Source: Thermoplasmatales archaeon SW_10_69_26 (GTDB lineage Archaea > Thermoplasmatota > SW-10-69-26). From it: DNA of 64,000 bases. The stretch lies in NCBI GenBank assembly GCA_003009755.1, contig PXUB01000032.1:65408-129407 (forward strand), written 5' to 3'. Every line of letters begins with the position of its first letter. Position 1 is the stretch's first letter. The translations under genes and the position numbers were made by a program. Below are positions 11,972-35,810 of the stretch, one piece after another. The notes under the pieces are model-generated. The model was not told the origin of the DNA. It did no database searches and saw only the letters and a list, made by a program, of their open reading frames with translations.

Positions 11972-14680
11972 ATGCCGCGTAGCTCCGTGTTCGTGACCGG
12001 GGACACCGGCGAGGGCCGTATCCGTGAAGCGACGGCGGCCAGCGAAGAGGAGATCCGAGAGATCCTCGAACCCGAGGTCGCCGACTGGTTCACCGACCGG
12101 TTCGACAGCTTCACCCCACCCCAGCGGTACGCGCTCCAACACCTTCACGACCGGCACAACGTGCTCGTCTCCAGCCCCACCGGCACCGGCAAGACGCTGT
12201 CCGCGTTCCTGGCCGGGATCAACGAGCTCGTGCACGAAGCCAAGGACGGCGGGCTGGAGGACCGCGTCTACATCCTGTACGTCTCCCCGCTGAAGGCGCT
12301 GAACAACGACATCGAGCGCAACCTCGAGGCCCCGCTCGATGGCGTGGCCGACAAGCTGGCCGAGGCCGGCCACCCCGACCCCGGCATCCGCGTGGGCGTC
12401 CGCACCGGGGACACGCCCAAAAGCGAGCGGCAGAAGATGACCCGCACGCCGCCACACATCCTGATCACGACGCCCGAGAGCCTCGGCATCCTGCTCAACT
12501 CGCCGACGTTCAGCGACCACCTGACCGAGACCGGCTGGGTCATCGTCGACGAGGTCCACTCCCTGGCCGAGGGCAAACGCGGCACGCACCTCATGCTCTC
12601 CCTCGAACGGCTCGAGGCGATGATCGAACGCGAGGCCGACGAGCAGGCCGGCCAGCGACCCGAGCCCCCACCCCAGCGACCGCCGGCCGAGCGCGGGCCC
12701 GTGCGCATCGGTCTCTCGGCCACGATCCACCCGCTGGACGAGATCGCCGGCTTCCTCGTCGGCCGCGACGCGGAGGGGCGCTCGCGGCCCTGCCAGGTCG
12801 TCGACGTGACCTACGCCAAGGACGTCGAGGTCGACGTCTTCTGCCCGACCGACGACATCCTGGCCACCGGCCGGGCCGAGGTCACCGACGAGCTGTACGA
12901 GACCCTCGACGAGCAGATCCGCCAACACGACACCACCCTTGTCTTCACGAACACCCGCGCCGGGACCGAGCGCGTCGTGCACCGCTTGATCGAACGCGAC
13001 CCCGGCCGCTTTGAGGGCACGATCGGCGCCCACCACGGCTCCCTCTCCAAGCAGCGCCGCCACGAGGTCGAGGACGCGCTCCGCGAGGGCGAGATGGACG
13101 CCGTCGTCACGAGCACGAGCCTCGAGCTCGGCATCGACATCGGCTCGATCGACCTCGTCGTGCTGTTGTCCTCGCCGCGTGGCGTCTCCCGGGCTCTGCA
13201 ACGCATCGGCCGCTCCGGGCACAAGCTGGGCGCCAAGAGCCAGGGCCTGCTCGTCGCGCTCGACCACGACGACCTCGTCGAGTGCACCGTGATCGCCGAG
13301 AACGCCCGCGAGGGCAAGCTCGACCCCCTCTCGATCCCCGATAAGCCCCTGGACGTCCTCTGCCAGCACGTCGTCGGCATGGCCCTCACCCGCGTGTGGG
13401 ACACCGACGAAGCCCTGCAACGCATCCGCCAGGCCTACCCCTACCGCGATCTCTCGCGCGAGGACTACGAGGCCTGCCTGGCGTACCTGGAGGGCCCCGA
13501 CGAGCTCGAGGACCAACGCGTCTACGGCAAGATCTGGTGGGACGAGGAGGACCAGACCTTCGGACGGCGCGGCAAGAAGACCCGCCCGATCTACTACACG
13601 AACATCGGCACGATCCCCGACAGCACCCAGCTGTCCGTGCGCTTCGACGACGAGACCGTCGGCACGGTCGACGAGGAGTTCGTCGAGACCCTGTCCAAGG
13701 GCGACGTGTTCGTGCTCGGCGGCAACGCCTGGGAGTACCGCGGTGCCAGCCCCGTCAAGGCCCGCGTCTCGCCCGCCCGAACCCAGCGTCCGACCGTGCC
13801 TCGGTGGGTGTCCGAGACGCTGCCCTTGTCCTTCGAGATGGCCCAACGCGTGGCCCGGTTCCGCAAGGACCTGGCGACCACGATCCGTCAGGACGGCGTC
13901 CAGGCGGCCCGCCGCGTGCTCGAGACCGAGCACGAGCTGGCCCCCGAGGCCGCCGAGAGCCTCGCCACGTTCCTGCGCGACCAGGCGCTGTACGCCGGCG
14001 TCCCCGGGCCCGACGAGGCCCTCGTCGAGGAGCACTCCACCCAGGAGGGCCGCACCCGCATGGTGTTCCACACGCCGATCGGGCGGCGAGGCTGCGAGGG
14101 ACTGGCCCGGGCCTTCGCCCACCGCGTCGAGGCCACGAAGGACTGCTCGGTGTCGTGGATGAACAACGACTACGGGTTCGTGCTCACGCTGCCCGAGCAC
14201 CGCAAGGTCACCCGGCAAGAGCTGCGGTCGCTTTTCCTCATCGACCTCGACGACGTGCTCTACGAGGCGATCGACGACGCCGAGCTGCTGCGCCGGCGCT
14301 TCCGCTACGTCGCCGGGCGCGCGCTGATGATCTTGCGCAACTACCTCGGCACCGACATCAGCGTCGGCCGCCAGAACGCGAAGGCCCGCCGCCTGCTGCG
14401 CCACCTGCAACGCGAGCGCCCGAACTCGCCCGTGCTCGCGGAGACCTACCGCGAGATCCTGACCGACGCGCTGGACTACCCGAACGCCGAGGACTACCTG
14501 TTCCGGTTCGTGTCCCGGCAGGCCTCGGTCCGCTTCGAACGCGACCTCCCGGGGCCGAGCCCGCTGGCGTTCAACCTCGTCGCCGCCACGAGCGCCGCCG
14601 GCGTCCTCAACGAGGACGCCAGCTCGCGGCTCGAGCGCTTCCACGAGGACGTGCAGGACGCGATCGCGGCCTCGCCGTGA
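11972..14680 (+). CDS. lhr: Lhr-type ATP-dependent DEAD/DEAH-box helicase
   Basis: 902 aa. Walker A SSPTGTGKTLSAFLAG, DEVH box VIVDEVHSLAE, helicase C motifs and an Lhr-core-like C-terminal extension. Confidence 0.85.
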   Translation: MPRSSVFVTGDTGEGRIREATAASEEEIREILEPEVADWFTDRFDSFTPPQRYALQHLHDRHNVLVSSPTGTGKTLSAFLAGINELVHEAKDGGLEDRVYILYVSPLKALNNDIERNLEAPLDGVADKLAEAGHPDPGIRVGVRTGDTPKSERQKMTRTPPHILITTPESLGILLNSPTFSDHLTETGWVIVDEVHSLAEGKRGTHLMLSLERLEAMIEREADEQAGQRPEPPPQRPPAERGPVRIGLSATIHPLDEIAGFLVGRDAEGRSRPCQVVDVTYAKDVEVDVFCPTDDILATGRAEVTDELYETLDEQIRQHDTTLVFTNTRAGTERVVHRLIERDPGRFEGTIGAHHGSLSKQRRHEVEDALREGEMDAVVTSTSLELGIDIGSIDLVVLLSSPRGVSRALQRIGRSGHKLGAKSQGLLVALDHDDLVECTVIAENAREGKLDPLSIPDKPLDVLCQHVVGMALTRVWDTDEALQRIRQAYPYRDLSREDYEACLAYLEGPDELEDQRVYGKIWWDEEDQTFGRRGKKTRPIYYTNIGTIPDSTQLSVRFDDETVGTVDEEFVETLSKGDVFVLGGNAWEYRGASPVKARVSPARTQRPTVPRWVSETLPLSFEMAQRVARFRKDLATTIRQDGVQAARRVLETEHELAPEAAESLATFLRDQALYAGVPGPDEALVEEHSTQEGRTRMVFHTPIGRRGCEGLARAFAHRVEATKDCSVSWMNNDYGFVLTLPEHRKVTRQELRSLFLIDLDDVLYEAIDDAELLRRRFRYVAGRALMILRNYLGTDISVGRQNAKARRLLRHLQRERPNSPVLAETYREILTDALDYPNAEDYLFRFVSRQASVRFERDLPGPSPLAFNLVAATSAAGVLNEDASSRLERFHEDVQDAIAASP

Positions 14681-14683
14681 GGC

Positions 14684-15658: not shown

Positions 15659-16638
15659 CTACCCCACCGGCCGCCACTTCAACCCGTAGCGGGTCTGGCC
15701 CTCCATCGAGAACAGGCGGCGCAGCACCGGCCGCACGCGGTCGCCGATCGACAGCTCGCCCTCGAGGGCCGCCTGCCCGATCTCGCGGCCGCCCTCGTCG
15801 AGGCTCACGATGACGACGTCGTAGGGGCCATCGGCGTCGTGCTGGCGGGCGAACTCGCCCGGCGGCCCGGCCTCGATCGTCGTCGTCGCGGCGACCTCGC
15901 CCCCGCCGCGGGCTCGGGCCCCGTAGCGGCGCTCGGGGTCGGCATCGTAGACCTCGCGGGACACGTAGGCTCCCTGCGAGGCCTCGCTCCACGGCTCGGC
16001 CTCGGCCTGCTCGCGGCGCCGGTAGATGTCCACGGTCAGCTCCTCGGCCGGGGTGGCCAGGCCGTCGACGGCGATCGCGGGGCCCTCGAGGCGGACGACG
16101 TGGGCCTGCCCGTCGCCGACGTCCCCGACCAGGACCGGGCCCTCGGCCTCGGTCGACCGCTCGAGGATCTCCAGGCCCGCGCCCGCCGGCCCGGCGCGGC
16201 CCACGGACCACCCAACGGCGCCCTCGCTGGCCGTCGAAGCGGTTGCCGGCGGGGCCAGCCGGGGCACGGTCTCGTCGGGGTCGAGCTCGGCGAAGGCCCG
16301 CTGGAGGGCCGCCTCGTCCCCGCCGCCGAGCGGGGCCGCCTCGACGCTGGCCGCGCCCGTGAGGCAGGCGCCCTCGTCGGGGCTCACGCGAACGGCGACC
16401 CCGGCGCCGCCAAGCCGACCTGCTCGCTGGGGTCCTCGAGGAAGACGCGGATCCGGTCCAGGCCTTCGAGGGCCTCGTCGGGGAGATGGAGGCCGGCCTC
16501 GACCGCCATCGTGAGCCCGTCCTCGTCCCATCCCGGGACGCGCAGCGCCTCGAACCCGCGGGCGAGACCGGCTTGCCGGGCGCGCTTGCCCTCGATCCGG
16601 TGCACGGGCAGGTGGACACCGCCAGCGGTGATCGCCAC
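15659..16638 (-). CDS. Thiolase-associated HMG-CoA-synthase-like / DUF35 OB-fold protein, interrupted by an apparent +/-1 frameshift near 16380-16400
   Basis: Frame 1 from ATG 16638 reads MAITAGGVHLPVHRIEGK...GLTMAVEAGL... (HMGCS N-terminal pattern) and stops at 16384. The next frame continues ...VSPDEGACLTGAASVEAA... (Cys-loop-like) and ends with the OB-fold-like YDVVIVSLDEGGREIGQAALEGELSIGDRVRPVL. The start abuts the thiolase stop. Confidence 0.45.
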
Positions 16639-16639
16639 C

Positions 16640-17803
16640 TCAGGTCCCCCCTCGCTCGAGCACGTGCACCGCGCACGTCGCCCCCGAGCCGCCGACGTTG
16701 TGCGTCAGCCCGGTCTCGGCGTCCGCGATCTGGCGGTCGCCGGCGCGAGAGAGCAACTGGTCGTGGATCTCGGCCACCTGGGCGACGCCGGTCGCGCCCA
16801 GCGGGTGGCCTTTGCCCTTGAGGCCGCCGCTGGGGTTGACCACGCAGGCCCCGCCGCGATCGGTGCGGCCCTCCGCCGTCGCGGGTCCGCCCTCGCCCTT
16901 GCCGGCCAGGCCCAGATCCTCGATCGCCAGGATCTCGGCGATCGTGAAGCAATCGTGCACCTCGGCCAGGTCGACCTCCTCGATCGAGCGCCCCGCCTCC
17001 CTCAGGGCCTCCTCGCCGGCGGTCCGCGTGGCGGAGAGCTCGGTCAGGCTCGGCCGTTCGTGCAGCGCCAGGTGGTCGCTGGCGGCGCCCGCTCCGGTGA
17101 TCGTGGTGGCTTCGGCATCGATCTGGTCGGCCCTCGCGGCCGAGGTGAGCACGAGCGCGGCGGCTCCATCCGTGGTGCCGCAGCAGTCGAACAGGCGCAG
17201 GGGGTCGGCCACGGTCGGCGAATCCATCACCCGCTCGAGGCCGACCTCCTTGCTGAACTGGGCGTTGGGGTTGTCGGCGGCGAAGCGGTGGTTCTTCACC
17301 GCGACCTGGGCCAGCTGCTCGCGCGTGGTGCCGTGTTCGTGGGCGTGGCGGGAGGCCATCAGGCCGTAGACGCCGGGGAACGTGGTGCCGGCCATGCGCT
17401 CCCAGGGCGTCTCGCCGGAGACGCCCAGCCAGTACCCGCTGCGGTGGCTGGGCTGGTCGTTCATGCGCTCGAACCCGACGACGAGCGCCACCTCGCATCG
17501 ACCCGCCTCGATCGCTTGCAGCGCCGAGCGGACCGCATAGCCGCCGCTTGCGCAGGCGTTCTCGACCCGGTGGGCGGCTACGCCCTGCAGGCCCTCGATC
17601 CCGTTGACCAGAGCGGCCGGGTTGCCCAACTGGCCGCCGCCGAACGCCAGCGAGGCCCACCAGGCCTCGTCGACGTCCTCGGCCGCCAACCCTGCATCTC
17701 GCAACGCATCGTCGACGACGGACTCGACGCGAGGGAACGCATCGCCGCTGTACGCACCGAAGTTCGACATCCCGCAGCCGACCACGGCCACCTCGGGGCT
17801 CAT
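16640..17803 (-). CDS. Acetyl-CoA C-acyltransferase (archaeal thiolase)
   Basis: MSPEVAVVGCGMSNFG... with thiolase active-site Cys regions and C-terminal ...NPSGGLKGKGHPLGATGVAQVAEI...NVGGSGATCAVHVLE. Confidence 0.9.
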   Translation of the reverse strand: MSPEVAVVGCGMSNFGAYSGDAFPRVESVVDDALRDAGLAAEDVDEAWWASLAFGGGQLGNPAALVNGIEGLQGVAAHRVENACASGGYAVRSALQAIEAGRCEVALVVGFERMNDQPSHRSGYWLGVSGETPWERMAGTTFPGVYGLMASRHAHEHGTTREQLAQVAVKNHRFAADNPNAQFSKEVGLERVMDSPTVADPLRLFDCCGTTDGAAALVLTSAARADQIDAEATTITGAGAASDHLALHERPSLTELSATRTAGEEALREAGRSIEEVDLAEVHDCFTIAEILAIEDLGLAGKGEGGPATAEGRTDRGGACVVNPSGGLKGKGHPLGATGVAQVAEIHDQLLSRAGDRQIADAETGLTHNVGGSGATCAVHVLERGGT

Positions 17804-17833
17804 CTCGGCCGACCATGCGGGACGGGGCCCTTA

Positions 17834-18258
17834 GACTGCCGGTCTTGTTTTGCTTACGCTCTCGCGCCGGCCTCCCGAGAGGACGAGCCCGGAAGCTCGT
17901 GCGAGGGAGCGTGGCAAAATCGCGGAGCCTGAGGAACGCAACCCTCGGGCGTGATCTCCGGGCACGACAACGAGGGGGCCCGCCTTAGACCGGCGCACCA
18001 GAACATTTCCGGTCCCACGGTCTCCCCCTACAAGCGGTTGGCCAGGAGAAGTTCACCGGATCGAGGGGGAGCGGTCTCCGTGACCCCCCTCACGGCGAGG
18101 CCGCCCTCAGGCCGGTGACGACGCGAGGTCCCCACGTCCGCGGGTTGCAAGCGTTGTCGCCGTCGACCTCGAAAGGCCTGTGGGCCTTCCGTCGTCTCGG
18201 CTCCGCGCTTTCACCGCCTGAGGGCGGCGAGAGCCTAACCCAAGCATCGCCGGCAGTC
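17834..18258. mobile_element. MITE (425 bp) derived from the IS630-family element at 24140-25267, flanked by TA
   Basis: Termini GACTGCCGG...CCGGCAGTC match the IS terminal inverted repeats, flanked by TA at 17832-17833 and 18259-18260. No ORF. Internal sequence is homologous in inverted orientation to the second copy at 41192-41562. Confidence 0.7.
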
Positions 18259-18286
18259 TAGCTTGACGGCCCGGCGGAAGACGCGA

Positions 18287-18975
18287 TCAGCGTCGGCGCA
18301 AGGCGACGGCGCCGGCCACGAGGGCAAGCGGAGCGACCCAGGGACCGAACGGGATGCCGTTGCCGTCCCCGCCGCCGTCCTCGCCACCGTCGGTGGTGCC
18401 GTTGCCGCCGCTGCTGCCCCCGGTCGTCTCGTCGCCATCCGTGGCACCGCCGTCGGTGGTGCCGGCGTCGCTGGAGGCGACCGTGACGGGCAGGCTCGTC
18501 GTTCCCTCGGCGGAGGGGAACTCGCCGTTGCAGCTTCCCTCGGGCGGGCCGTAGTTGCCGCCGGGGAAGGTGCCCGTGACCGTGACCTCGCGGTCGCCGC
18601 CGGAAGCGGTGTTGGCGGCCTGCACGGTGACGGTGGTCTCCTGGGAGTTGTTGTAGCCGCCGGCCGCCGTCCCCGAGTTGTGGATCCCTTGCGTGTCCGA
18701 GAACACGAGCTCGGAGGGATCGGCCAGACCGGTGACGCCGTTCGGGTTGGAGACGCTCACGTTGACCGGGAGCTCCTCGTTCTCGGCGCAACTGAAGTTG
18801 TCACCCGTCAACCGGACCAGCACCGTGACGTCCTTGGACTCGCCCGGCGACAGCTCGCCGGCTTCGTCTTGCGGTTCGAGCTCCACCGAGAAAGAGGGCT
18901 GCTGAGCAGCCGCCAGGCCAGCGATGGCAAGCAGCGCGGCGACCGTCAAAGCCCCGATCGTTCGTGAACCCACGG
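18287..18975 (-). CDS. Secreted Thr/Gly-rich surface protein with PGF-CTERM-like anchor
   Basis: Signal-like (V)GSRTIGALTVAALLAIAGLAAAQQ; C-terminus GIPFGPWVAPLALVAGAVALRRR. Track ORF extends to 19045; a GTG start near 18975 is preferred but uncertain. Confidence 0.55.
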
Positions 18976-19214
18976 AGTCACACCCACGCTGGTGGACGAG
19001 GTTCCGGCCCTTGACGATTGTGGATTCGGCCTCGAACACTCTCACCCACGGGTGTGGTCTGGGCCCCGGCCGACGTCCGGCCCCTCATCCCCCGCAAGGT
19101 CGCCAACCACGACCGTGACGTTGCTCTCTGCGATCGCTCGCGGCCTCGTCCGCCAGCGCCGGGTCAGGCAGCTGCTCGAGGCCCAGGACGATCCCGGCGA
19201 CCTCGAACGCGGCT

Positions 19215-22344: not shown

Positions 22345-22652
22345 CGTGGATAGACCTTCCTCAGTACGTGCCTTAGGCTTGGCGGGTGGTTATACATTTC
22401 CCTCCGAGGGCGCGCAGGCGACCGCTATCCGTGGTAGGACGTGCCTAGGGACGTTCTCGGCGACCGGGAGCCTGGCATGGGTCTCCGGGGCGAGCGCGTT
22501 CGCGGTTCCTGGTGCAAGGGTTATACGGAACCGTCGGGCTCCCAGGCCGCGTGGGTCACGACCAGGTCGACCTCGACACGTTCCTGGAGGAGGGCATCCC
22601 CGAGCCCGCGGACCCGGGCGCGACCGGTGAGCCTTCCTACGTCAGCCACCCG

Positions 22653-24140
22653 ATGGTGGAGCCCGAGACGCTCGAGGAGCGCCCCTACCAGACCGAGCTG
22701 GCCGAGCAGGCCCACGGCCGTCGAACGCTGGTCGTGCTCCCGACCGGGCTCGGCAAGACGATGGTGGCGGCGTTGCTGGCCGCCGAGGTCCTGCAGAACC
22801 GCGAGGGCAAGGTCGTGTTCCTCGCCCCGACCCGGCCGCTGGTCCAACAGCACGAGGAGACCTTCGAGGAGCTGTTGCGCGCCCGGGACCAGGTCGCGCT
22901 CAGCGGCTCGGTCCCCGCCCAGCGTCGGGCCGAGCTCTTCGCGGAGAACCGGGTCATCTTCTCCACGCCCCAGGGCCTGCGCAACGATCTCGAGGCTGGG
23001 CTCGTCGACATCGACGACGTCGGCCTGCTGGTCTTCGACGAGGCCCACCGCGCCGTCGGCGACTACGCCTACGTCGACATCGGGCAACGCTACCGCTACG
23101 CCTGTCCCGAGGGCACCGTCCTCGGTCTCACCGCCTCCCCCGGCGGCGACGAGGAGCGCATCCAGGAGGTCGTCGACAACCTCGGCATCCACGAGATCCT
23201 CAGTCGCGACGCCGAGGACCCCAGCGTCAAGCCCTACGTCAAGGAGACGAAGGTCCGCTGGGTCAAGCTGCAGCTCACGCCTGTGATGGAGGCCGTGCAA
23301 GCCCGGCTGCAGAACGTCGTCGACGAGCGTGCCAAGCCCCTGAAAGAGGCCCGCTACCTCGAGCCCAAGCCCTACGTCTCCCGGACCGACGCGATCGAGG
23401 CCGGCAAGAAGATCCGGGCCGAGCTCGACGACGCCGAGAACAAGGGGCCGCTGTTCGGCATGTTGTTAAACCAGGGCGTCGTCATGCAGGCCCTGCACTG
23501 CCTCGAGCTCGTCGAGACGCAGGGTGTCGAGCCGTTGCAGACGTACCTCGCCCGCCTCATGCAGGACGAGGATCCCTCCCGCAGCGCGGAGGCCTTCGCC
23601 AAGGACCCCCAGGTCACGGACGTCTGGGCCCGCATCCAGGACTGGCCCCACCCCAGCCATCCCAAGATCGAGGCCTTGATCGAGACGTTGACCCGCGAGC
23701 TGGCCGACAACCCCGATGGCCTCGTCATCGTGTTCGCCCAGTACCGGGACACGATCAACTCGATCCTCGAAGCCCTCGAGGACGAGGGCATCGACGCCGA
23801 GAAGTTCGTCGGCCAGTCCGACCGCGACGGCGACGAGGGCATGAGTCAGGACGAGCAAAAGGAGGTGCTCGACCGCATGCGCGCCGGCGAGTTCCGCGTG
23901 CTCGTCGCCTCCAGCGTCGCCGAGGAGGGGCTGGACATCCCCAGCGTGGACCTCGTCGTGTTCTACGAGCCCGTGCCCAGCGAGATCCGGCTCATCCAGC
24001 GCCGCGGCCGCACCGGCCGCCAAAGCGTGGGCCGCATGGTCGTCCTCATCACCGAGGACACCCGCGACGAAGCCTTCATGCACGCCGCCATGAGCCGGGA
24101 GAAGAAGATGCGCCGCCTGGTCAAGGATCTGGGCGACTAG
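22653..24140 (+). CDS. Hef/FANCM-family DEAH-box helicase (helicase domains only)
   Basis: RPYQTELAEQA...LVVLPTGLGKTMVAALLAAE..., DEAH box FDEAHRAVGDYAY and helicase C (QRRGRTGRQ). Start at ATG 22653 by alignment to Hef N-termini; track ORF begins 22512. Confidence 0.75.
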   Translation: MVEPETLEERPYQTELAEQAHGRRTLVVLPTGLGKTMVAALLAAEVLQNREGKVVFLAPTRPLVQQHEETFEELLRARDQVALSGSVPAQRRAELFAENRVIFSTPQGLRNDLEAGLVDIDDVGLLVFDEAHRAVGDYAYVDIGQRYRYACPEGTVLGLTASPGGDEERIQEVVDNLGIHEILSRDAEDPSVKPYVKETKVRWVKLQLTPVMEAVQARLQNVVDERAKPLKEARYLEPKPYVSRTDAIEAGKKIRAELDDAENKGPLFGMLLNQGVVMQALHCLELVETQGVEPLQTYLARLMQDEDPSRSAEAFAKDPQVTDVWARIQDWPHPSHPKIEALIETLTRELADNPDGLVIVFAQYRDTINSILEALEDEGIDAEKFVGQSDRDGDEGMSQDEQKEVLDRMRAGEFRVLVASSVAEEGLDIPSVDLVVFYEPVPSEIRLIQRRGRTGRQSVGRMVVLITEDTRDEAFMHAAMSREKKMRRLVKDLGD

Positions 24141-24155
24141 ACTGCCGGACAGAAT

Positions 24156-24683
24156 GTGCGTAACTTATCGTGGCGTCCGATACTAACTCAAATAGGGGTG
24201 GGATGCCCTGTCAGCCTTGACGCTGACCCCGACCAAAAGGAACAACGACGCCTCGCCGCAGGCCAAGATCTACTGGACGGCAAACGCCAAGCCGACATCG
24301 CCGAAGGCTACGGCGCCACCCGCACCACCGCCCACCGCTGGGCGCACACCGTCGGAACCGAAGGCCTCGACGGCCTGAAAAGCACACGCACCAACGCCGG
24401 ACGACCCCCGAAACTCGACGCCGAGAACAAACAACGCCTCGCCGAACTTCTCCAACGAGGCGCCCAAGCCCACGGCTGGGACACCGATCTGTGGACCCGC
24501 AAACGTGTGGCCCAGCTGATCGACCGGGCGTTCGACGTCGACTACTCTCCCCGACACTGCTCGCGGATTCTGCACGAGATCGGGTTCCGCCCGGTCAAAC
24601 CCAAGCGCGTGGCCAACGAAAAGGACGAGGCCGAAAAACAGCGCTGGCTGGCCGAGGAGGCTGGAGAGCTGAAAAAAACCTAG
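24156..24683 (+). CDS. IS630-family transposase, N-terminal HTH part (orfA)
   Basis: Helix-turn-helix DNA-binding region ...GKRQADIAEGYGATRTTAHRWAH...; ends at TAG just after GCTGAAAAAAACC. Confidence 0.8.
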   Translation: MRNLSWRPILTQIGVGCPVSLDADPDQKEQRRLAAGQDLLDGKRQADIAEGYGATRTTAHRWAHTVGTEGLDGLKSTRTNAGRPPKLDAENKQRLAELLQRGAQAHGWDTDLWTRKRVAQLIDRAFDVDYSPRHCSRILHEIGFRPVKPKRVANEKDEAEKQRWLAEEAGELKKT

Positions 24684-25255
24684 CCGACGGTGCAACCGTC
24701 CTGTTCCCGGACGAGAGCACCTACCGCTTCACCCCCGTCCGCCAGCGCGGCTGGGCGCCCTACGGACAGCGACCGACCGTCGAGCACACCTACGGGGACT
24801 GGTGGACGGTGAGCGCGATCAGCGCCTTGGCGATCTGGATCGAGCCCGATGGCTCGTTAGGCACGAAGGTCTTCTTCCGGTTGTACCCGAAGGAGAGCGT
24901 GAACAGTCGACACCTCCGGGATTTCCTGCACCAGGTTCGCTACCAGCGCGAGGGCGAGATCAGCGTGGTGTGGGATCGCGCCAGCCATCACCGCGCCCGG
25001 CGGGTGCAGCGGTTCTTCGCTTCCTACGAGCGGTTCAGCTCGGTGTTGTTGCCGGCATATTGTCCAGAGTTGAACTCGGACGAGGGGGTGTGGAATTGGT
25101 CGAAGACCAAGGATCTGGCCAACGCCTGTCCGAAGGATGTGGATGCCCTGGTGTCGGGGGTTCGAGGGCCCTTGCGTCGGCTCCAGCATCGACCGAGTGC
25201 GCAGTGGTGGTGTGTGCACGACTCCGAGTTCCCGATCGAAGAGTTACTCACATAA
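24683..25255 (+). CDS. IS630-family transposase, DDE catalytic part (orfB, expressed by -1 frameshift at the A7 run 24672-24678)
   Basis: Frame continuing from the A7 run reads ...DESTYRFTPVRQRGWAPYGQRP...VVWDRASHHRARRVQRF...LLPAYCPELNSDEGVWNW... (DDE motif block of IS630/Tc1). Confidence 0.75.
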   Translation, partial: ADGATVLFPDESTYRFTPVRQRGWAPYGQRPTVEHTYGDWWTVSAISALAIWIEPDGSLGTKVFFRLYPKESVNSRHLRDFLHQVRYQREGEISVVWDRASHHRARRVQRFFASYERFSSVLLPAYCPELNSDEGVWNWSKTKDLANACPKDVDALVSGVRGPLRRLQHRPSAQWWCVHDSEFPIEELLT

Positions 25256-25266
25256 TGACCGGCAGT

Positions 25267-27048
25267 CTAACCGCTTTCGGTGGCGACCGAGAGGTCGCGG
25301 TCGAGCATCGCCCCCCACACCCCCCGCGGTGTCCGGCTGCAATCCGTGCACGCGAGATCGGGATCCTCGTACCGGTCACCGGTCCCGTCCCCGTCGACCA
25401 GCAACCCGTTCTCGCCGTTCCAGTCACCGTGCATGCAGGGGTCATCGCAGGCGAGGTCCTCCCCCACGGCGGCCCGGTAGGCGTCCACGCCCCCGAGGTC
25501 CACCAGCGAGGACCCCCAGCCGGCGGTCGCTCCACCGTTGGTCCCCCAAACGCCCGGGTAGGTCTCGCAGCGGGCTTGGCACAGCGCGTGGACGTCGACG
25601 CCGGCCTCGTAGACGTCATCGCCGCCGGCGTCCACCAGGCGTCCGACACCGAGGTGCCCTCCCCCGTTGGCCCCATGCCCTCCGGCGATGCTCAGGCATC
25701 GGCTGAGATGGGAGGCGTCGCCCAGACACTCGGTCGTGGCGTTCGTCCCGGCCTGGTACACGTCGTCGCCGTCCGAGGAGACGAGACTGCCCGAGCCGGA
25801 ATAGCCGCCGCCGTTCACGCCTAGGCCTCCGGCCACCGCCGAGCACTTGGACCCCTCGCAGGTGACCGATGCGTTGACGCCGGCGAGGAACGCGTCCTCG
25901 CCCCCGCCGTCGATCAGCGAACCAACGCCGACGTGGGCGCCGCCGTTGACGCCTGCGCTGCCGGCGCGGGCCACACAGAACTCCGCCTCGCACCGCTCCT
26001 CCGCCTCGTGCCCGGCGAGGTAGCGGTCGGTTCCCTCGCCTGCGTCGACGAGTAAGCCGATCCCGTTGTCCGCTCCGCCGTTGACGCCGCGTGCGTTCGC
26101 GTGGTAGGTGTCGTTGCCGGTGGCGTCCACGAGCACGCCCGTGCCCTCGAACCCGCCGCCGTTGACGCCACAGCACCGCGGATCGCTTGGCTGGCCGTAC
26201 GTGTCGTCGCCGCCGAGGTCCACGACCGCCGCGGCGGGGAACGTTGCGCCGGTGCCGCCGGCGTTGTTCTCGTACTCGTCGTCGCCTCCGAAGCTCACGA
26301 TGAGCGCGCAGTCGTTCGCAAACGTGCGGCTCTCGTCACTGGTGTCGAGGGCGACGGCAGGGCATGCGTCGACGGCCGGACGAGCCGCGGAGGTCGAAGA
26401 TTCCGCTACCATGGCCAAGTTCTCCACCGCATTCAGGAAAGCGGACCGAGCGGCGAAGACGTCGGCGAGTTCGCCGCCCTCGACGTGGGGGAAGGGATCG
26501 AGGCCCCCGTCGAAACCAGGAACCGCCCCCGTCCCGGCAGCTGGTGAAAGGCGAGCAGGGGAGGCTTGGTCGTCGGTGAGCTTTTTGGCCACGCTGGTAT
26601 CCGACACGGCCTCGAGCCGGAGGAACGTCGTGACGAGGTCGGCAAGCGCGTCCGCGAGACCCGGGGACCGTTGCTCGACGATCTGGGCGGCGAGGCGATC
26701 CCCGAGGTCGAGGATCGTCGCGTGGCGGTGGGTCAGGGATTCGAGGGCCGCGAACAAGGACGACGCCGAGCCCGTTGTCGGAGGTTCGTCCGACGGGATG
26801 CCGAGATCCCCGCTCTGCTGACGAGCCACGGCCTCGGCCACGTCCAGCGATGCAACAGCTGGAATCTCATCTTCGGTATCCGACGCGCCCTCGTCCGCGA
26901 TCCCGGCTCCGTGGGCGTCGCTCACCCTTTCCGGAACGAGGGTACCGGCCGCACTCGCCGCGGGAGCGAGGATCATCACAACAGCGAGGGCGACCGAAAC
27001 GCCCCTCAGCCGCCGAGCACGTTGGCCGAAAGAGAGGATATCCGTCAC
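25267..27048 (-). CDS. Secreted beta-solenoid repeat protein with about eight ~30-aa GVNGG repeats
   Basis: Signal peptide ...VSVALAVVMILAPAASAAG; repeats of form GVNGGxxxGxGxLVDxxGxDxYxAG; many Cys pairs; stop codon overlaps the TA target of the IS630 element. Confidence 0.65.
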   Translation of the reverse strand: MTDILSFGQRARRLRGVSVALAVVMILAPAASAAGTLVPERVSDAHGAGIADEGASDTEDEIPAVASLDVAEAVARQQSGDLGIPSDEPPTTGSASSLFAALESLTHRHATILDLGDRLAAQIVEQRSPGLADALADLVTTFLRLEAVSDTSVAKKLTDDQASPARLSPAAGTGAVPGFDGGLDPFPHVEGGELADVFAARSAFLNAVENLAMVAESSTSAARPAVDACPAVALDTSDESRTFANDCALIVSFGGDDEYENNAGGTGATFPAAAVVDLGGDDTYGQPSDPRCCGVNGGGFEGTGVLVDATGNDTYHANARGVNGGADNGIGLLVDAGEGTDRYLAGHEAEERCEAEFCVARAGSAGVNGGAHVGVGSLIDGGGEDAFLAGVNASVTCEGSKCSAVAGGLGVNGGGYSGSGSLVSSDGDDVYQAGTNATTECLGDASHLSRCLSIAGGHGANGGGHLGVGRLVDAGGDDVYEAGVDVHALCQARCETYPGVWGTNGGATAGWGSSLVDLGGVDAYRAAVGEDLACDDPCMHGDWNGENGLLVDGDGTGDRYEDPDLACTDCSRTPRGVWGAMLDRDLSVATESG

Positions 27049-27319
27049 GTCACCCAGCCTCGTTGCGGTGGTTGGGATGCAGCCCTTTCAAGGCTTCGTT
27101 GTCACAGCCCGAGGGGGAATCGCGTGCCGTCATCGAATGCGCTGGCGCACCCGCCATCCGGGCAGGGACGGTTCCGGGACGGCGTGTCCGCCGCCGACCA
27201 AGGCCGGGACAGCGGGGGCGATCATCAACAGGCCAACCAGGACGGCGCGGACCCTGACGAACATCGAGCAAGAAGGCTTAGCCGGACCCTATCAGGGTTC
27301 TCCGAGTGCGCCTAAACCG

Positions 27320-28705
27320 TCACTCTTCTCGTCCCTCGCCGCCGGGCACGTCCTCGGGCCCGATACCCAACAACCGCGGCAATGGATCGAACAGCGCCCG
27401 CTCAACCGTCGCCTGATCCACGGCCGCCTCCGAGGAACTACGCGTCCCGTTGTCCCGATGATCGTTGACCCCGTAGACACGGTACTCGTCATCCCCCGTG
27501 AGCTCGAAGCTCGTCCGCCAGGACGTCACACTCGGGTCCAGGTGCGCCACGGGTTGCCACGGGCTCGGGGCCTCGAACGTCGCGTTGGACCGGCGTTCGA
27601 CCACGTACCCCGTCAACACCGAATACGAGGTGGGTTTGGGCGGATCCCACGTGACCTCCGTGCTGAACGCATCGCCCTCGCGAACCGGTTCGACATCCAA
27701 ATCTCGGGGCGCGTTCGGCTCCAACGAGTAATGCACGATCTCCGCCAAATCCCCCCGCTCGAACGCCTGGGACCCGCCAAGCAGGATCGCTTGCCGGCCG
27801 GTCCACACGGCGGTCGCCTGGTCACGACCCGTGGGCAACCGGCTATCCATGAACCGGATCTCCTCCTCCCCCGGATCGACCCGCAGGATCGAGGCCTTGC
27901 TCACCCCGTCGTTGATCCCCCCAAGCACGAACGCGTGATGCCCATCCCACACGGCGCTCGGGGCCCGCAACGAAACGTTGAGCTTCACGTCCTGCAACTG
28001 AAGGGTGTCTGTATCGGGGTCGAAGCGCCAGATATCATCGCACTCGCCCGGGCAGCCAGTCCCCCCGAACAGGTAGGCCTCCTCGCCCGTCCACACCGAC
28101 GCCATCCTTTCACGCGGACCGGGGAAGCTCTCCTCCAGCTTCGTTACCGTATCGTTCACCGGATCATAGCGCAAAATCTGGTCCAGGGGAGTGAACGCGT
28201 CCCGGCCACCGAAGATGTAGGCGCGATCGCCGGTCCAGACCGTCGTCGCATCTATCGGATCGTTCGGTAGCGTGGCGTTCATTTCCTCGACCGTGTCCGT
28301 GGACGGGTCATACCGGGTCACGGTGTCCGTCCAGAACACGTACGCACAACCCTCGGGACAGCCTGCCTCCGGCCGCGAGCGATCATCCCACACCGCGGTC
28401 GCACTCGATCCCGTCCAGGGCAACCGGGCATCCATCACCGTCGCGTTGCCCGTATCCGGTTCGTAGCGAACGATCTCGTCACTGAAATCGCTGGACCCAC
28501 CAGTCCGGTTCAAACCCCCGAACACGTACACCGCCTCTCCCGTCCACACGGACGACGGGTTCTTCAACCCCTGCGGCAACTCGGCTTCGACGCTGGCCGT
28601 GTCCGCGCTCGCCGACGGCGCGATGAGGGCGACCACGGCCACGGCAGCCAACAAACCGACGCCGCCAGCGATCCAGGCACCTCCCATCGGTTCTCCCTCG
28701 AACAT
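27320..28705 (-). CDS. Secreted Kelch-repeat beta-propeller protein with C-terminal fibronectin-III-like domain
   Basis: Start chosen at MFEGEPMGGAWIAGGVGLLAAVAVVALIAPSASA; six Kelch-like repeats (VWTGxxAYVFGG pattern); C-terminal FN3-like ...PRDLDVEPVREGDAFSTEVTWDPP...YRVYGVND... Confidence 0.7.
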   Translation of the reverse strand: MFEGEPMGGAWIAGGVGLLAAVAVVALIAPSASADTASVEAELPQGLKNPSSVWTGEAVYVFGGLNRTGGSSDFSDEIVRYEPDTGNATVMDARLPWTGSSATAVWDDRSRPEAGCPEGCAYVFWTDTVTRYDPSTDTVEEMNATLPNDPIDATTVWTGDRAYIFGGRDAFTPLDQILRYDPVNDTVTKLEESFPGPRERMASVWTGEEAYLFGGTGCPGECDDIWRFDPDTDTLQLQDVKLNVSLRAPSAVWDGHHAFVLGGINDGVSKASILRVDPGEEEIRFMDSRLPTGRDQATAVWTGRQAILLGGSQAFERGDLAEIVHYSLEPNAPRDLDVEPVREGDAFSTEVTWDPPKPTSYSVLTGYVVERRSNATFEAPSPWQPVAHLDPSVTSWRTSFELTGDDEYRVYGVNDHRDNGTRSSSEAAVDQATVERALFDPLPRLLGIGPEDVPGGEGREE

Positions 28706-28855
28706 CGGCCAGGAGCCGCATAGACCCCCGCCTGTCACGTCCAATCGTAACACCGCCCTTGGCCAAAGGCATTCTCCAAGCGCGTGTGAACCGTCATCGA
28801 AGCCAAACCAAGCCCGAAGACAACTTATCACCAACTCAATTGGTCAATCGGGCTT

Positions 28856-29960
28856 GCACATAAACTCAGTTCTGACCTGACCGAGCGTCCCATCAATCCA
28901 ACAACCGAACGTTGTGCACGATCTCCCGCGCCAACACCGTGTTCCGCCGACTGGTCCGCAGCCGGCAGCGGAGACGATCGCCGAACAGCAGCTTGACCGT
29001 GGCAAACCGGGACTCCGCGGTCACCCGGCGACGGTACACGTCCTGAAACCGATTGGGGAAGTTGAGCGCGTATCGGGTCTTCTTCTCGAACGGATCGGAA
29101 GGGAACCGCCACCAGCGAGCGTTGCTCTTCGGCTTGAAGTAGGGCTGCAACCCGGCGTCTTTGACGAGCTGGCAGTTGTCCCGGGTCCAATACGCCTTGT
29201 CGCCCAACACGGCGTGGACGGCTGCTTCGTCAGGCACCTCGTCGATCAGCTCGGGCAGCTCTTGGCTGTCGTGCCGGTGCCCGGGCGTCAACGAGACAGC
29301 CAACGTGGCCCGGGTCTTGACGCCGTTGAGCACGTGCGTTTTGGCGTACTGGCGAGGCTCAGCGTCGTGTTCTCGCGCATGCCAGGCACCTTGTCCGGTG
29401 AGCACGAGACCCGAGGCATCCACGCTGGCGTTCTCTTCGAGGCTCCAGAAGGGCTGAGCGGTCTCCGCCAGCACTCGCTGAAGCGTGTTCGTGATCCCCG
29501 TTCTTGGTTGTACTGGCACAGCGTGTTGAAATGGGGCACGTGCTCGATGTCCAGATGGGGCTTGAGCAGGTAAAGCAGGCCTTCGGTGCGGCGGAAGCTG
29601 AGATCGAAGTACGCCCGGACCAGCAAGCCCAAGATGACGGTGCGGCGCGGGATCCGGGGCCGGCCGGTGTTGTAGGACCAGTTGTGGATGCAGCTGGCAT
29701 CCACGAGGTCTCGGAGACGGTGCACCACGCGCACCATCTCGCGGGCTTGCCACGTGTTGTATGTGCTCCAGTCGAAGCCGTTGTCGGTGGGTTCAAGCGT
29801 GTGCTGTTCTTCTGTTGTCACTCGGGCATCCATCCCAGCTCGATGGCTCTCGAGCGGGCTTCTCAGGGATGCCCCGTTTTGTCAACGGCAGTGGTTTGTA
29901 TCGCGTCAGCTGGGCTCGTAGCCCACTTTATGTGCGAGCCCCGGCCGAAGGCTGAGTTTC
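28856..29960 (-). mobile_element. IS4/IS5-superfamily insertion sequence, ends approximate
   Basis: DDE_Tnp_1-type transposase between short matching termini (left GCACATAAACTCAG at 28856-28869; right carries TTTATGTGC at 29926-29934 and CTGAGTTT at 29952-29959). The exact ends could not be resolved by eye. Confidence 0.55.
28893..29833 (-). pseudogene. IS4/IS5-superfamily DDE transposase split over two frames (frameshift near 29530-29600)
   Basis: N-terminal frame MDARVTTEEQHTLEPTDNGFDWSTYNTWQAREMVRVVHRL... ends about 29530. The C-terminal frame carries ...GDKAYWTRDNCQLVKDAGLQPYF...VYRRRVTAESRFATVKLLFG... (DDE and YRRR/ExxF signature). Confidence 0.7.
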
Positions 29961-30588
29961 AGGGATCGAACCCGACGGTGTAGCCCTTCTGTTCCAAGAT
30001 CTCCATCGCTTCGCTGGCGAGTTCTCGAGCCTCTTGCTCGTTTGGGACACCGTCGGCAAGCTGGGCATCCCATTCTTCTTGGACGCGCTCCCAGGAGATC
30101 AGGCCTTGGTCGAGAAGCGTCTGGAGATCCTCGATGTCGCGGTCGGGGGTATCCCGCCAGCGGCCGGTCACGCTCTTGAGCAAGAACACGGCGTTGGCTG
30201 GGGCTAGCTCGACGGTCAGGTTGCCCTCGGTGAACCACTCGTCTGTTGCCTCCGCCATGCGCTGGGAGAACTGCAGGCAACCGAAGATCCGTCCGGGCGG
30301 GAACAGATCCATGCTCATCACGTTCTCGCGCTCGCAGTAGATCCACATGTCGAAGGAATCGGTTAGCGGGATCTCCTCGGCCGGCTGGTAACCCACCCGA
30401 CCTAGCTCTTCGATGAGGGTGTGGATGGCCCGGTCGTGGTCGACGACGGCGTCCACGTCCTTGGTGGTGTCCTTGATGCCGCGGGCACTCATGCAGCAGC
30501 CGCCGAAGAGGATGAACCGCGTCGGTGCCTGGATGACCTCGCCGATCCGTTCGAGCTCGGTGCGGATCGTGGCGCGGTCAACGGGCAA
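29959..30588 (-). CDS. Polymerase-beta-superfamily nucleotidyltransferase (AbiEii-like motif), 209 aa
   Basis: NTase signature FILFGGCCMSARGIKDTTKDVDAVVD (hGG...G...T.DhDhhh) followed by a ~100-aa helical C-terminal extension; start overlaps the upstream wHTH gene by 11 bp; stop sits in the IS right end. Confidence 0.65.
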   Translation of the reverse strand: MPVDRATIRTELERIGEVIQAPTRFILFGGCCMSARGIKDTTKDVDAVVDHDRAIHTLIEELGRVGYQPAEEIPLTDSFDMWIYCERENVMSMDLFPPGRIFGCLQFSQRMAEATDEWFTEGNLTVELAPANAVFLLKSVTGRWRDTPDRDIEDLQTLLDQGLISWERVQEEWDAQLADGVPNEQEARELASEAMEILEQKGYTVGFDP

Positions 30589-31597
30589 GGCTGCCCTCCT
30601 CGACGCCGAAGTCCTCTCGGAACCGCTGGATCTCCTCCTCGAGGGGGTGCTCTCCGGTTTCGACGAACACCTTGGCTTCGTCCAAGAGCCCGCCGAGCTG
30701 GTAGAAGAACGCGCGATCGAAGAAGCTCTCGTGTCGGAGCAAGCGGTGGTCCACTGCAGCCAGGAAGAACGCCTTGGCTCTCAGGGCAACATCGTCGGCG
30801 CTGGAACCGGATGGATCCCGGCGGGGGGTTGCCTGGGCACGACAGTAGAGGAACATGTGATCCCAGGGGTCGAGCTCTCGGGGGCCCAGGTAGCCGTAGG
30901 TTGCCTCGCTCGCAATCGGGGAGAAGAGATCCAGATCCGAGGATGGACCCACGAGTTGGATCGGTGGTTCGAGATCGGCGTTGTTGAAGCGCCAGGCCAC
31001 CTCGAGGCCGCGCTGGTGGATGGGATGGTGAGCGAAGACTGCAGCTCGAACCGGGCCTTCCTGTTCTTCCAGCCCTCCCGGGTGGACCGCCTCGCTGGGC
31101 GGTCGGCGGTAGAGGTCGGCGTACTCCTCGATGAGCCATTGCAAACCGCTCAGGCGCGGGTTCGGTTCGAGGCCGCCCTCCGAGGAGAGCAGGAGGTTGC
31201 GGGAGCGCAGGTGGTCGATGGCGTCCTGCCAGGTCGACTTGTGGACGCCGACCAACTCGCGGGCGTCGGGATCACGGTGAGGATAGGGGAAGACGGTGAG
31301 CGCGGCCAAGTGGGTGGGTGCGGAGAGCTCATCCTCGAGGTTGGGTCGCTCGCTGAGGGCGTCCGCACATGCACTCGCCAGGTCGGCGTGGCGGGCGGTG
31401 AAGGTACGGTTGCGTTTGGCTCTCGATGCTTCCAGCAGGTTCAGCTCCTCGAGCTTGCGTACCCGCCGGTCGAGCGTCGACCGGGGGAGGAACTCGAGGT
31501 CCCGCAGCTGGAACCCGTCCGGGTCCGCTGCGGCGAGGATCCGGAGATCGCGGCCGTCGAGTGAGAAACGAACGGGGTTTCGCTTATCACTTGTCAC
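30578..31597 (-). CDS. Winged-helix DNA-binding protein with extended C-terminal domain (AbiEi-like partner of the nucleotidyltransferase)
   Basis: N-terminal wHTH ...LRILAAADPDGFQLRDLEFLPRSTLDRRVRKLEELNLLEA..., then a second predicted wH (...VHKSTWQDAIDHLRSRNLLL...) and a ~150-aa C-terminal domain; 3' end overlaps the NTase start. Confidence 0.6.
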   Translation of the reverse strand: MTSDKRNPVRFSLDGRDLRILAAADPDGFQLRDLEFLPRSTLDRRVRKLEELNLLEASRAKRNRTFTARHADLASACADALSERPNLEDELSAPTHLAALTVFPYPHRDPDARELVGVHKSTWQDAIDHLRSRNLLLSSEGGLEPNPRLSGLQWLIEEYADLYRRPPSEAVHPGGLEEQEGPVRAAVFAHHPIHQRGLEVAWRFNNADLEPPIQLVGPSSDLDLFSPIASEATYGYLGPRELDPWDHMFLYCRAQATPRRDPSGSSADDVALRAKAFFLAAVDHRLLRHESFFDRAFFYQLGGLLDEAKVFVETGEHPLEEEIQRFREDFGVEEGSLAR

Positions 31598-31856
31598 CGG
31601 TTGTTTCCAATCTCGATCAAAGACACTTAAGAGTTCCTCTGATTGGGTGCTTCACAAACGGGTTCACAGACGGTACCGGGAGAGGCGAGGTTCGCCTTTG
31701 GCGACACGCATCGGCGTAGTTCTCTGGATCTGCTTGCAGACGAAGCGGAGACAAGGTGAGTCCCACCTGCATCGTCGAGTAGCTCACGGCACGTAGCCGC
31801 ACCCGGCCTGGCTGGGGAAGAACGACATCTGCGATCCTGGGGGGAATCTTGGAGTC

Positions 31857-34800: not shown

Positions 34801-35810
34801 TTCTGAGTGAACGCTCGGATCTCCGAGTCGAGGATGCGGAATCCGTCGGGGCCGGGGCGGTGGGGAAGCGGCGTTCCGACAAGGTTGGCCTGGACGTCCA
34901 GTCCGTTGATGCGTTGGAGGTCCATGGCCACGGCTGGGTCCTCGCCGTAGCAACACAGGGTGGTCGGGTAGGACACCGTGTTCGCTTCGATTATCACGTT
35001 CGAAGCGTTCGTGACCGAGAGGGCCTGGAAGCTCCGCTCGAACCTGTTGTCGGCGACGTGGAGGTGATCGCTTCCTTCTGCCTCCAGGCTAGGCGGTGGT
35101 GGCGTATCACGAGCGGCGAAGTCGTCGACGGACCCTGGCAGGGGGGAAAACGCCATCTCGTCCTGGGGGAGGATACGGTTATCCTGGATCGTGATGTTCG
35201 TGGCGTTGGCGAGGAACACCGTCGTCGGTCGGGCCTTGCGGCCGGCATCCTCGGGTGAAGGTTCGCCGCCGATGCGATTGTCTTGGAGGACGACGTGGGC
35301 GTCCGTGTCCTCGACCCTGATGCTCGTCACGTTCCAGCCCGCGATCAGATAGGGATCCTCGGAGGTGCCCTCGCCGTCGACCACGCCCGAGCCAGGCCGG
35401 TAGGTGGATTCCCCGGTGAGCGGTTCGCGGAGCTCGAATCCCTGTCGAGGCTGGTCGCCATCGATTGTGATGGGTGGATGATGGGGTCGCTGGGCGTGAT
35501 CAACGGGCTTAGTTCCTGCTTCGTCCGCGCCGAGGCTGGAGGGACAGCGTGCGGGAGGCTCGCATCGGTTGAAGGTGTGGGCCGAGGCGGGCTCCTCTCT
35601 GGGGAGAGCCTCGAAGTTGGGGGATGGTTGGGTGTCGATGCGGTCCTCCGTGTGGAGGATGCCACGTTCTGCTTGATCGAGGGTGGGAAAGCCCGCTGCC
35701 GCGTTCTGTAGGAAGAGACCGAAGGCGAGGAGGGCCCCCATGCAGGCGAGCGAAGCGGGGATCGGTCGTGTACGCCTGGGGAAACACATGGCCACGGGCG
35801 GCTGGCTCAC
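31857..35810 (-). CDS. Giant secreted right-handed parallel beta-helix (PbH1/NosD-like) repeat protein, 1317 aa
   Basis: Signal peptide ...MGALLAFGLFLQNAAAG; dozens of ~22-aa repeats of the pattern NxIxxNxxxGIxL / VxNNTIxxxxxG across the whole length; acidic C-terminus. Confidence 0.75.
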   Translation of the reverse strand: MSQPPVAMCFPRRTRPIPASLACMGALLAFGLFLQNAAAGFPTLDQAERGILHTEDRIDTQPSPNFEALPREEPASAHTFNRCEPPARCPSSLGADEAGTKPVDHAQRPHHPPITIDGDQPRQGFELREPLTGESTYRPGSGVVDGEGTSEDPYLIAGWNVTSIRVEDTDAHVVLQDNRIGGEPSPEDAGRKARPTTVFLANATNITIQDNRILPQDEMAFSPLPGSVDDFAARDTPPPPSLEAEGSDHLHVADNRFERSFQALSVTNASNVIIEANTVSYPTTLCCYGEDPAVAMDLQRINGLDVQANLVGTPLPHRPGPDGFRILDSEIRAFTQNQIRSARTALETDASAELTDNKVGDAHEGLRVHGGGSIVLDGWTDERTRTSVSVTNASLDSVAGSFSAGITATQASVNLTAVKAEGAIVTTDSSLNVTRSRVDGPISIGASEAIVTGTEIRPGWKEDGLAAGGSATLVAKNNTLLGRSPPDRGFPSGTALSVAVGATAVFEANQLVNWSVGLRARDATMKAEGNTIENVDQGVDLVWPSPGTSLSRNKILEARHGIQLRGTDTPKIHNNTIEATEVGIHTSSDGIVLKDNRLRGADVGLRLSSADNASLYRNEFQETGVHLEGYRSAGSHEIPPSNTVNGDPIRYVTDTSSASPEGPAGQIILVNVSDTVIENRELGPTTVGVQTFKTDNVTVRNVSVTGGWRGLSAIGGDGVEFVNVEINVSDLGIRLLHGIGGVLQPAVGVAGDAPDQRGSIRSADVRMPGEGDPLGGVLAVGRNVTVANTSVQGGTHGIVLLAGERSRAVDNLVDGSHVGMLLGGEQYAVRENTVEANETGIMLDGDQLQLQRNRLTDAGFRIEDGLWGHAENGHDIDRSNTVRGRPVAYLAGEDNRTVRPGYGQVVLEGTENVTVRGLQIEDGAVPIQIVDSQDVRLEGTNLEGRTAVALENVDAAHVEDNVLRAQRTGLSLERTEDVLVRGNEIHRTADESDSPLYPVVEDGGLQAERSHNVTIAVNGIDGFPKAIAIQDVEQARIDANAMTKGGIFFEPDSWNVPDVAITRANTVNDRPVLFCQDAQDAVIPQVWCDSDGNLVPPPTTSKGEPVPPGQVILANTNRTIVEDIELEETGVGVQVLGGQHVSISNVTVKEGEVGLRAAATVNIDVSNSHIDDARQGIVYEGVTGIIFQDSSSIHGTVVSGTGRTGIALPGTTLTTVTETKVEGFATGVENDQSILEPELQHMQISNNTVGVDARGSDLEAVNSNIAGNEKAGFVGGGEARRNWWGCAQGPSSPGCDDVIGRAHILPWLTEPADAAEP

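Follow-up and report, generated by a model that had tools for sequence, protein, structure and literature searches.

IS630 of Shigella and E. coli, the IS630-Tc1-mariner elements and the Stowaway-type MITEs are the described systems closest to the elements reported here: they are alike in a DDE_3 domain with an N-terminal HTH, in inverted ends and in duplication of a TA target, and the Stowaway-type MITEs further resemble them as short non-coding derivatives with only the ends in common. Tenzen and Ohtsubo are said to have found that IS630 prefers CTAG targets. In Neisseria, the Correia elements are TA-duplicating, hairpin-folding MITEs whose ends and duplicated TA can jointly give rise to promoter elements beside genes. 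Halophilic archaea have well-described MITEs of optional presence within populations, among them MITEHsal2 and ISH2 of Halobacterium salinarum (PMC7002104). On the promoter side, genome-wide mapping in Haloferax volcanii gave a promoter layout of BRE, TATA box and -10 'WW', leaderless mRNAs being those with a leader of 0-5 nt (PMC4983044).

We analyzed a stretch of 64,000 nt from the metagenome-assembled genome (MAG) SW_10_69_26, called the window below, which is gene-dense and has a G+C content of 68.3%. Its host is a halophilic, uncultured member of the Thermoplasmatota and not a haloarchaeon, and the closest homologues of its thiolase outside the genus come from Thermoplasmatota MAGs; the 'haloarchaeal' setting in which an earlier sequence-only reading had placed a thiolase promoter is thus to be corrected. 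Taken together, our observations make it probable that two short elements of the window are IS630-type MITEs, that one of them recently hit the TATA box of the thiolase gene and that the resulting hybrid promoter still starts near the ATG.

The first short element, MITE 1 (17834-18258, plus strand), is 425 bp long and non-coding, begins with GACTGCCGGTCTTGTTTTGCTTACGCTCTCG and ends in ...CGAGAGCCTAACCCAAGCATCGCCGGCAGTC. One copy of its TA target-site duplication lies on the thiolase-proximal side (17832-17833), at the place of the single TA of empty sites, and the second copy at 18259-18260. MITE 2 (41192-41562, minus strand) measures 371 bp, is inverted relative to MITE 1 and is bordered by TA at 41190-41191 and 41563-41564. 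Together with an insertion sequence (IS) at 24140-25267, both elements are flanked by TA on either side. The 9-mer GACTGCCGG occurs six times in the window, at 17834(+), 18250(-), 24140(+), 25259(-), 41192(+) and 36446, and five of these occurrences are element termini; the remaining terminus, ending at 41562, reads CCGGCAGTT and differs by one mismatch. The occurrence at 36446 was considered as the end of a fourth element and rejected as coincidental, as it lies inside the reading frame of an IS1595-type transposase pseudogene. Two non-coding elements with the termini of the IS630 element and TA flanks had been proposed from the letters alone, and both stand at the coordinates then given.

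MITE 1 and MITE 2 have in common blocks of 80 nt (90% identity), 50 nt (88%), 49 nt (86%), 39 nt (95%) and 36 nt (92%), a similarity far above chance, between which lie indels of 20, 62 and about 130 nt. No similarity was found by BLASTN between the MITE interiors and the 1128-bp IS, so that the earlier statement that the two elements share internal blocks with each other, here of 36-80 nt, and not with the transposase gene is confirmed. Open reading frames differ between the copies and are interrupted by the indels, no frame being conserved, hence the MITEs are non-coding; searches for Pfam or other protein families returned none in them, the sole protein matches being ORFs called inside other copies. 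MITE 1 and MITE 2 are one non-coding family of inverted-end elements, and possess every sequence-level feature of MITEs.

The IS at 24140-25267 (plus strand, 1128 bp, TA at 24138-24139 and 25268-25269) carries an HTH ORF reaching to 24683 and a DDE_3 ORF reaching to 25255, in frames 0 and -1 and joined by an A7 slippery run at 24672-24678. Pfam matches are HTH_33/HTH_32 and DDE_3. Each of the two ORFs matches one half of the NCBIfam IS630 model NF033545, while the conceptual -1 frameshift product (353 aa) matches it in a single stretch covering positions 9-292 of 299 with 202.7 bits, for a cut-off of 100 bits. In GenBank the two halves of this IS630 transposase are annotated as separate 'hypothetical proteins', BRD56_08705 and BRD56_08710. 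Between the two ends of the IS, 26 of the 36 outermost positions agree, among them all of the first 9. Only 15 relatives of the transposase were found at E<=1e-10 and the next nearest proteins are just 30-37% identical, which places it in a small, isolated IS630 clade. Relatives with 72-87% protein identity lie on contigs of about 1.1-1.5 kb, that is, of IS size; the four that were compared show 77-80% nucleotide identity, ends of the form TA|GACTGCCGGAC...CCGGCAGTC|TA and an A6/A7 run at the equivalent position. This conservation of the run at the ORF junction argues for programmed slippage, not decay. The element displays every IS630-family feature tested (HTH and DDE_3, TA/CTAG target, inverted ends).

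How the MITEs relate to this IS can be read from their ends. Over the first 36 positions, 19-28 agree between MITE ends and IS ends, the first 9 nt being the same, and the IS, three MITE copies and three related ISs are all bordered by TA at either end. The best match to the left end of the IS is one end of the third MITE copy described below (GCCTGCCGGACTCGATGTGCGCAACATCTCG, 28/36), while the MITE 2 end AACTGCCGGACGTGTTTT is almost the same as the left end GACTGCCGGACGTGTTTC of a related IS on contig L010; some MITE ends are closer to the ends of a relative than to those of this IS copy. End matches, TA duplications and a CTAG-type target all support the earlier assignment of the MITEs to an IS630-type element. 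The IS at 24140-25267 is a likely source of transposase for them, and mobilization of the MITEs in trans by this transposase or that of close relatives is what the ends suggest. By analogy with the IS630 family, the transposase would be made by a -1 frameshift on the A7 run and would recognize the ends common to IS and MITEs, 5'-GACTGCCGG followed by some 25 nt of related sequence; the element would then be cut and pasted into TA, preferably within CTAG, with duplication of the TA.

The family is not confined to the window. Further copies were located by searching with the ORFs that gene callers had put inside MITEs, and MAG SW_10_69_26 holds at least five copies, MITE 1 included, on four contigs; three further variants are present on JGI and ENA contigs outside the MAG. 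The prospect, raised in the sequence-only reading, that the elements might be unique to this stretch of DNA can be set aside on these counts. At least four GenBank 'hypothetical proteins' of the MAG are in fact spurious ORFs running through MITEs, namely BRD56_08780 (in MITE 2), BRD56_04875, BRD56_06280 and part of BRD56_10750. The last of these looks like a real acidic protein with its C-terminus replaced by MITE sequence. The third copy, behind BRD56_04875, is located after uvrB (L002, 4617-4966; 351 bp) and has the same ends, with interior modules of which some are common to MITE 1 and others to MITE 2; the three copies thus range from 351 to 425 bp. All are made largely of short G+C hairpins, with fold z-scores of -4.8 (copy 1), -7.6 and -3.4, as anticipated by the earlier mention of stable internal hairpins. 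Exact-pattern scans of public genome, metagenome and viral contigs with an internal 20-mer, a degenerate end pattern and a second internal block returned nothing; JGI contig L007 does contain the end pattern, so these negatives say little about the true distribution. BLASTN of MITE and IS against plasmids gave nothing, and an nhmmer profile built from the three copies detected no others, either in the window or in 13 comparison loci. This is a new, unnamed MITE family in a little-studied lineage, with no new principle attached to it.

Several other repeats and rearrangements were observed in the window. A 17-nt exact match links the MITE 1-specific interior (18088-18104) to 14666-14682, in the spacer after an Lhr-type helicase gene, and to L003 4378-4394; it is maybe due to chance or to a shared small hairpin module. 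Ahead of the gene for tRNA-Arg(TCG) (1689-1765) lie a copy of its 5' part (1484-1508) and a 66-nt tandem duplication (1563-1694); behind it come three tandem units of 114-125 nt that contain hairpins and that all open with the same 44 nt of the tRNA 3' end (1749, 1874, 1988). The repeats of 1484-2100 resemble remnants of attachment sites stacked by integrating elements. Units 2 and 3 share the 15-mer CGGATCTCTGATCCG with MITE 2, where it lies at 41390 (3 hits vs 0.43 expected). The final 108 nt of gyrB, which ends at 40493, recur with 88% identity, stop codon included, 144 nt downstream at 40637-40744; this 3'-end repeat (40386-40744) may be an integration or rearrangement scar, and the window has no gyrA behind gyrB. 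The IS630 element and an IS1595-type element enclose about 12 kb (24140-36122) that are missing from the 98%-identical strain L006, and this absence defines a strain-variable island bounded by insertion sequences; in L006 the helicase stop (gac-TAG-ctcc) is followed instead by a different sequence of 1.7 kb, and the island genes have a lower third-position G+C (0.80-0.83). The IS1595-family element itself (36121-37342) has a frameshifted transposase and inverted ends AGTGCTTCTC...TGTCTCAGTA and adjoins tRNA-His (37473-37545), while a 52-nt match to its left end occurs at L006 1518-1569. Finally, two tandem paralogous genes for membrane proteins of about 600 aa (59222-61033 and 61052-62854; 68-70% DNA identity) have similar upstream boxes, TTGAAACGAC and CTGAAACGAC.

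The insertion of MITE 1 can be followed directly, in the manner that the sequence-only reading had proposed, by comparison with strains lacking it. Contigs L003 (JGI 3300046057) and L006 (JGI 3300046063) are 98-99% identical to the window at the nucleotide level over up to 12 kb, and both carry the exact empty site. Between an upstream gene of about 250 aa and the thiolase gene they have a 56-nt spacer, ...GGGCCGTCAAGC-TA-AGGACCCCGTCCCGCATGGTCGGCCGAG-ATG, with a single TA and without the element, the site itself reading ...GTCAAGC-TA-AGGACCCC... The occupied allele was found in the window, in L001 (an ENA contig, 99.96% identical) and in L007, which breaks off within the MITE. An exact empty site in strains of 98-99% identity implies that the MITE 1 insertion is recent and polymorphic.

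We then examined what lies at this site. The thiolase gene (16640-17803, minus strand) encodes an intact protein of 387 aa with Pfam domains Thiolase_N and Thiolase_C_1, and its ATG and N-terminus MSPEVAVVG are conserved in orthologues. We aligned the 60-80 nt before the thiolase ATG in L003, L006, L004, L005, L008 and L009, whose thiolases have 70-99% protein identity; these six loci amount to five independent sequences. Within the 60 nt upstream, the 8-mer richest in A/T is located at -36 to -25 in 5/5 independent loci, the boxes of the orthologues being AAGCTAAG, AAGTTCAA, AAGCTAAA, AAGCTATA and AGCTTAAG, and in all five a AAGCTAAG-like box, the only A/T-rich one, stands 24-28 nt ahead of the ATG. 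All the orthologous regions also show an A/T pair near -11 to -14, and none of the six contains a Shine-Dalgarno motif before the thiolase gene. We infer that the conserved A/T box is the TATA box of a leaderless mRNA, or of one with a leader of a few nucleotides. The arrangement matches the BRE/TATA/-10 'WW' layout of Haloferax volcanii (PMC4983044). A leaderless promoter with its TATA box about 27 nt upstream, as earlier suggested, fits a box at -36 to -25 and no Shine-Dalgarno in five independent loci. Other genes of the window have the same layout, with starts at 42125 (TCTTAAAG), 47273, 55989 and 58531 (TCGTTTAGGC), while a Shine-Dalgarno (GGTGA or GAGGT) with a more distant A/T box was seen at starts 4196, 47448, 59222, 38517 and 37978. 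Of the gene starts of the window that could be read clearly, about half have a Shine-Dalgarno, which, like the non-haloarchaeal host, counts against the reading proposed here; the host uses both leaderless-looking and Shine-Dalgarno-led starts.

MITE 1 ends exactly 30 nt before the thiolase ATG (17804-17833, TA included), the very distance read earlier from the window, and its target TA is the centre of the box AAGC-TA-AG at -34 to -27. The element landed inside the conserved, correctly spaced A/T box. What is left of the native thiolase core promoter (17804-17833, minus strand) comprises TAAGGG, the 3' half-box at -30 to -25, and the A/T at -13/-12, and it has no Shine-Dalgarno. The displaced upstream half of the ancestral promoter (...GGGCCGTCAAGC) lies at 18261-18286 on the same strand, with a short spacer after the stop of the 252-aa gene, and the old BRE and 5' half of the box are now 427 bp further from the thiolase gene. 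On the thiolase-proximal side the occupied allele reads ...GACCGGCAGTC-TA-AGGGCCCC..., so that the junction 8-mer AGTCTAAG (AGTC-TA-AG, -34 to -27) keeps 6/8 bases of the box and the same A/T content as before (5/8), while the MITE end takes up the BRE position. At -25 the occupied allele has in addition G in place of A, which weakens the box; the ancestral box was itself a weak TATA, with 5-6 A/T of 8. In terms of mechanism, MITE 1 would have split a pre-existing TATA box at its TA, the MITE end replacing the old BRE and 5' half-box, and the junction AGTC-TA-AG would serve as a hybrid promoter, half MITE end and half native, with transcription starting at or just before the ATG. We regard this hybrid junction promoter as the most likely outcome, since most of the box is restored at the proper spacing, the thiolase has kept an intact ORF and the allele was assembled in three data sets. 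The earlier view that the promoter is MITE-provided holds for the upstream half-box and the BRE position, which are MITE sequence, and fails for TAAGG and the A/T at -13/-12, which are native.

Other outcomes of the insertion have to be weighed against this one. The richest A/T block of the occupied allele is located in the MITE end, at -53 to -40, and this block (TAAGCAAAACAAGA) could act as a new TATA box in a promoter fully provided by the MITE, with a start about 15-25 nt before the ATG and a short leader. It holds the most A/T-rich 8-mer of the occupied allele (6/8) and recurs in the corresponding end of MITE 2, and bacterial IS and MITE ends with outward-reading promoters, such as those of the Correia elements, are well known. 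However, a leader starting in the MITE end would have no Shine-Dalgarno, the block is missing from the equivalent end of the third copy, and the homologous A/T box of the IS (AACTTATC, 24162-24169) is placed to read inward to the transposase start, not outward; we consider this promoter unlikely. Similarly, we find it improbable that the junction is inactive and that the thiolase is expressed by read-through, either from the upstream gene or from within the MITE, on a long-leader or polycistronic mRNA. The upstream gene (18287-19045, minus strand as the thiolase; 252 aa) codes for a secreted or membrane-anchored protein and is a possible origin of such transcripts. From folC to the dodecin gene all genes lie on the same strand with short gaps, and the sense strand of the MITE contains no T run of 5 or more and a single T4 (17916-17919), so that internal archaeal termination may be weak. 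Yet the TATA-like box keeps its distance in all relatives, which argues for a promoter of the thiolase's own, and a structured leader of 450 nt (z-score -4.8) without Shine-Dalgarno would translate poorly.

A loss of the promoter altogether, with an operon now decaying in this lineage, would agree with the extra A-to-G change in the box and with the state of the second operon gene (15659-16638, minus strand), which encodes a 367-aa protein in relatives and is broken in the window: compared with L001, L003 and L006 it has a frameshifting deletion of 124 nt at 16404-16411, bounded by a short GGC microhomology. This deletion could be a real variant or an assembly error of the MAG. L001 carries the MITE and not the deletion, which shows that the two events are not linked, and the occupied allele is present in three assemblies. 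Moreover, the thiolase ORF is intact and differs from the empty-site alleles by 4-5 amino acids, while the synonymous/non-synonymous ratio over the operon of the MITE allele, from differences too few to carry weight, is no different from that between the two empty-site strains. Decay thus appears quite improbable. As to the nature of this operon, which had been called HMGCS-like, that likeness was not recovered: by sequence, the second gene shows a C-terminal DUF35-type OB fold only, with 25.7 bits to PF01796, below the cut-off, and E=0.038 to 6esq_E by profile, the first 280 residues having no match in family and solved-structure profile searches. A different kind of alternative concerns the elements themselves, which could be structured small-RNA genes with incidental inverted ends. 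Their predicted folds are strong and a few hairpins keep their shape through paired changes (e.g. ACGAGC/GCTCGT vs ACGGGC/GCCCGT), but three sequences do not suffice for covariation, the copies differ by indels of 20-130 nt that make the interior a mosaic, and presence or absence at a TA with duplication is the behaviour of a transposon. Rfam, searched with the element and with the whole window, yielded nothing relevant even at E<=10, only two chance miRNA hits. Small-RNA genes thus look very unlikely indeed, and the idea that the MITEs encode one, put forward earlier, is left with no family match and hairpins of the kind typical of MITEs.

We also asked where the elements had inserted. Flanks read C-TA-G in most cases, for the IS, the MITEs and the related ISs as well as for four further copies deduced from ORFs reading out of them. 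Such sites are scarce: the window contains 619 TA vs 1605 expected and 21 CTAG vs 187 expected. The IS sits at a TA shared by the stop codons of converging genes (22512-24140, plus strand; 25267-27048, minus strand), and MITE 2 likewise (40821-41192, plus strand; 41562-42137, minus strand), while the third copy lies on the TAG stop of uvrB. With G as the first base of the elements and, in most cases, C as the last, TAG is rebuilt on both sides; the last base of MITE 2 is T, giving TAA on one side. Stop-codon TAs received 3/4 of the mapped insertions vs about 8% of the non-disruptive TA sites, for a rough P of about 0.002 that is based on four events and a home-made gene list. The CTAG preference of IS630 combined with selection would give such a pattern. 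In a gene-dense genome of 68% G+C, poor in TA and CTAG, the targets tolerated would be mostly stop-codon TAs (TAG/TAA) and the A/T boxes of promoters. One may go a step further and suppose that the terminal bases TA|G...C|TA of this IS630 clade do more than reflect the CTAG target and repair the site that is hit, stop codons being restored as TAG on both strands, even at a TA common to two converging genes, and the TATA box rebuilt by the end and the duplicated TA; we offer this as a tentative and rather doubtful idea. If it were true, insertions would survive only at stop codons and core promoters of an archaeal genome that is gene-dense and starved of TA, and thousands of natural cells would carry a half-transposon core promoter that could be read in salt-crust metatranscriptomes.

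The clustering at stop codons illustrates how target choice and selection shape the survival of transposons in G+C-rich genomes. The thiolase locus is a natural allele pair, an intact core promoter against a TATA box split by a MITE, and can be used to ask how much sequence an archaeal TATA/BRE needs. Overall, this is ordinary mobile-element biology that leaves current understanding unchanged: the mobile elements of halophilic Thermoplasmatota behave like haloarchaeal ones and are active in natural populations.

Compared with IS630 of Shigella and E. coli, the present system resides in an uncultured halophilic Thermoplasmatota host, belongs to a small isolated clade of transposases and has its transposase gene split by an A7 frameshift site. 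With MITEHsal2 and ISH2 it has in common a size of 400-500 bp, G+C-rich halophilic archaeal hosts in which CTAG is under-represented and an optional presence within populations; those elements differ in belonging to the ISH11 and ISH8 families, with duplications of 5-7 bp or longer and A/T-rich interiors (PMC7002104), whereas the elements described here are G+C-rich, built of hairpins, of IS630 type and flanked by a TA duplication. In the case of the Correia elements, the boxes concerned are the -10 and -35 boxes of bacterial sigma-70, in contrast to the candidate archaeal TATA box of the thiolase gene, which pre-existed, was split and appears to have been partly rebuilt.
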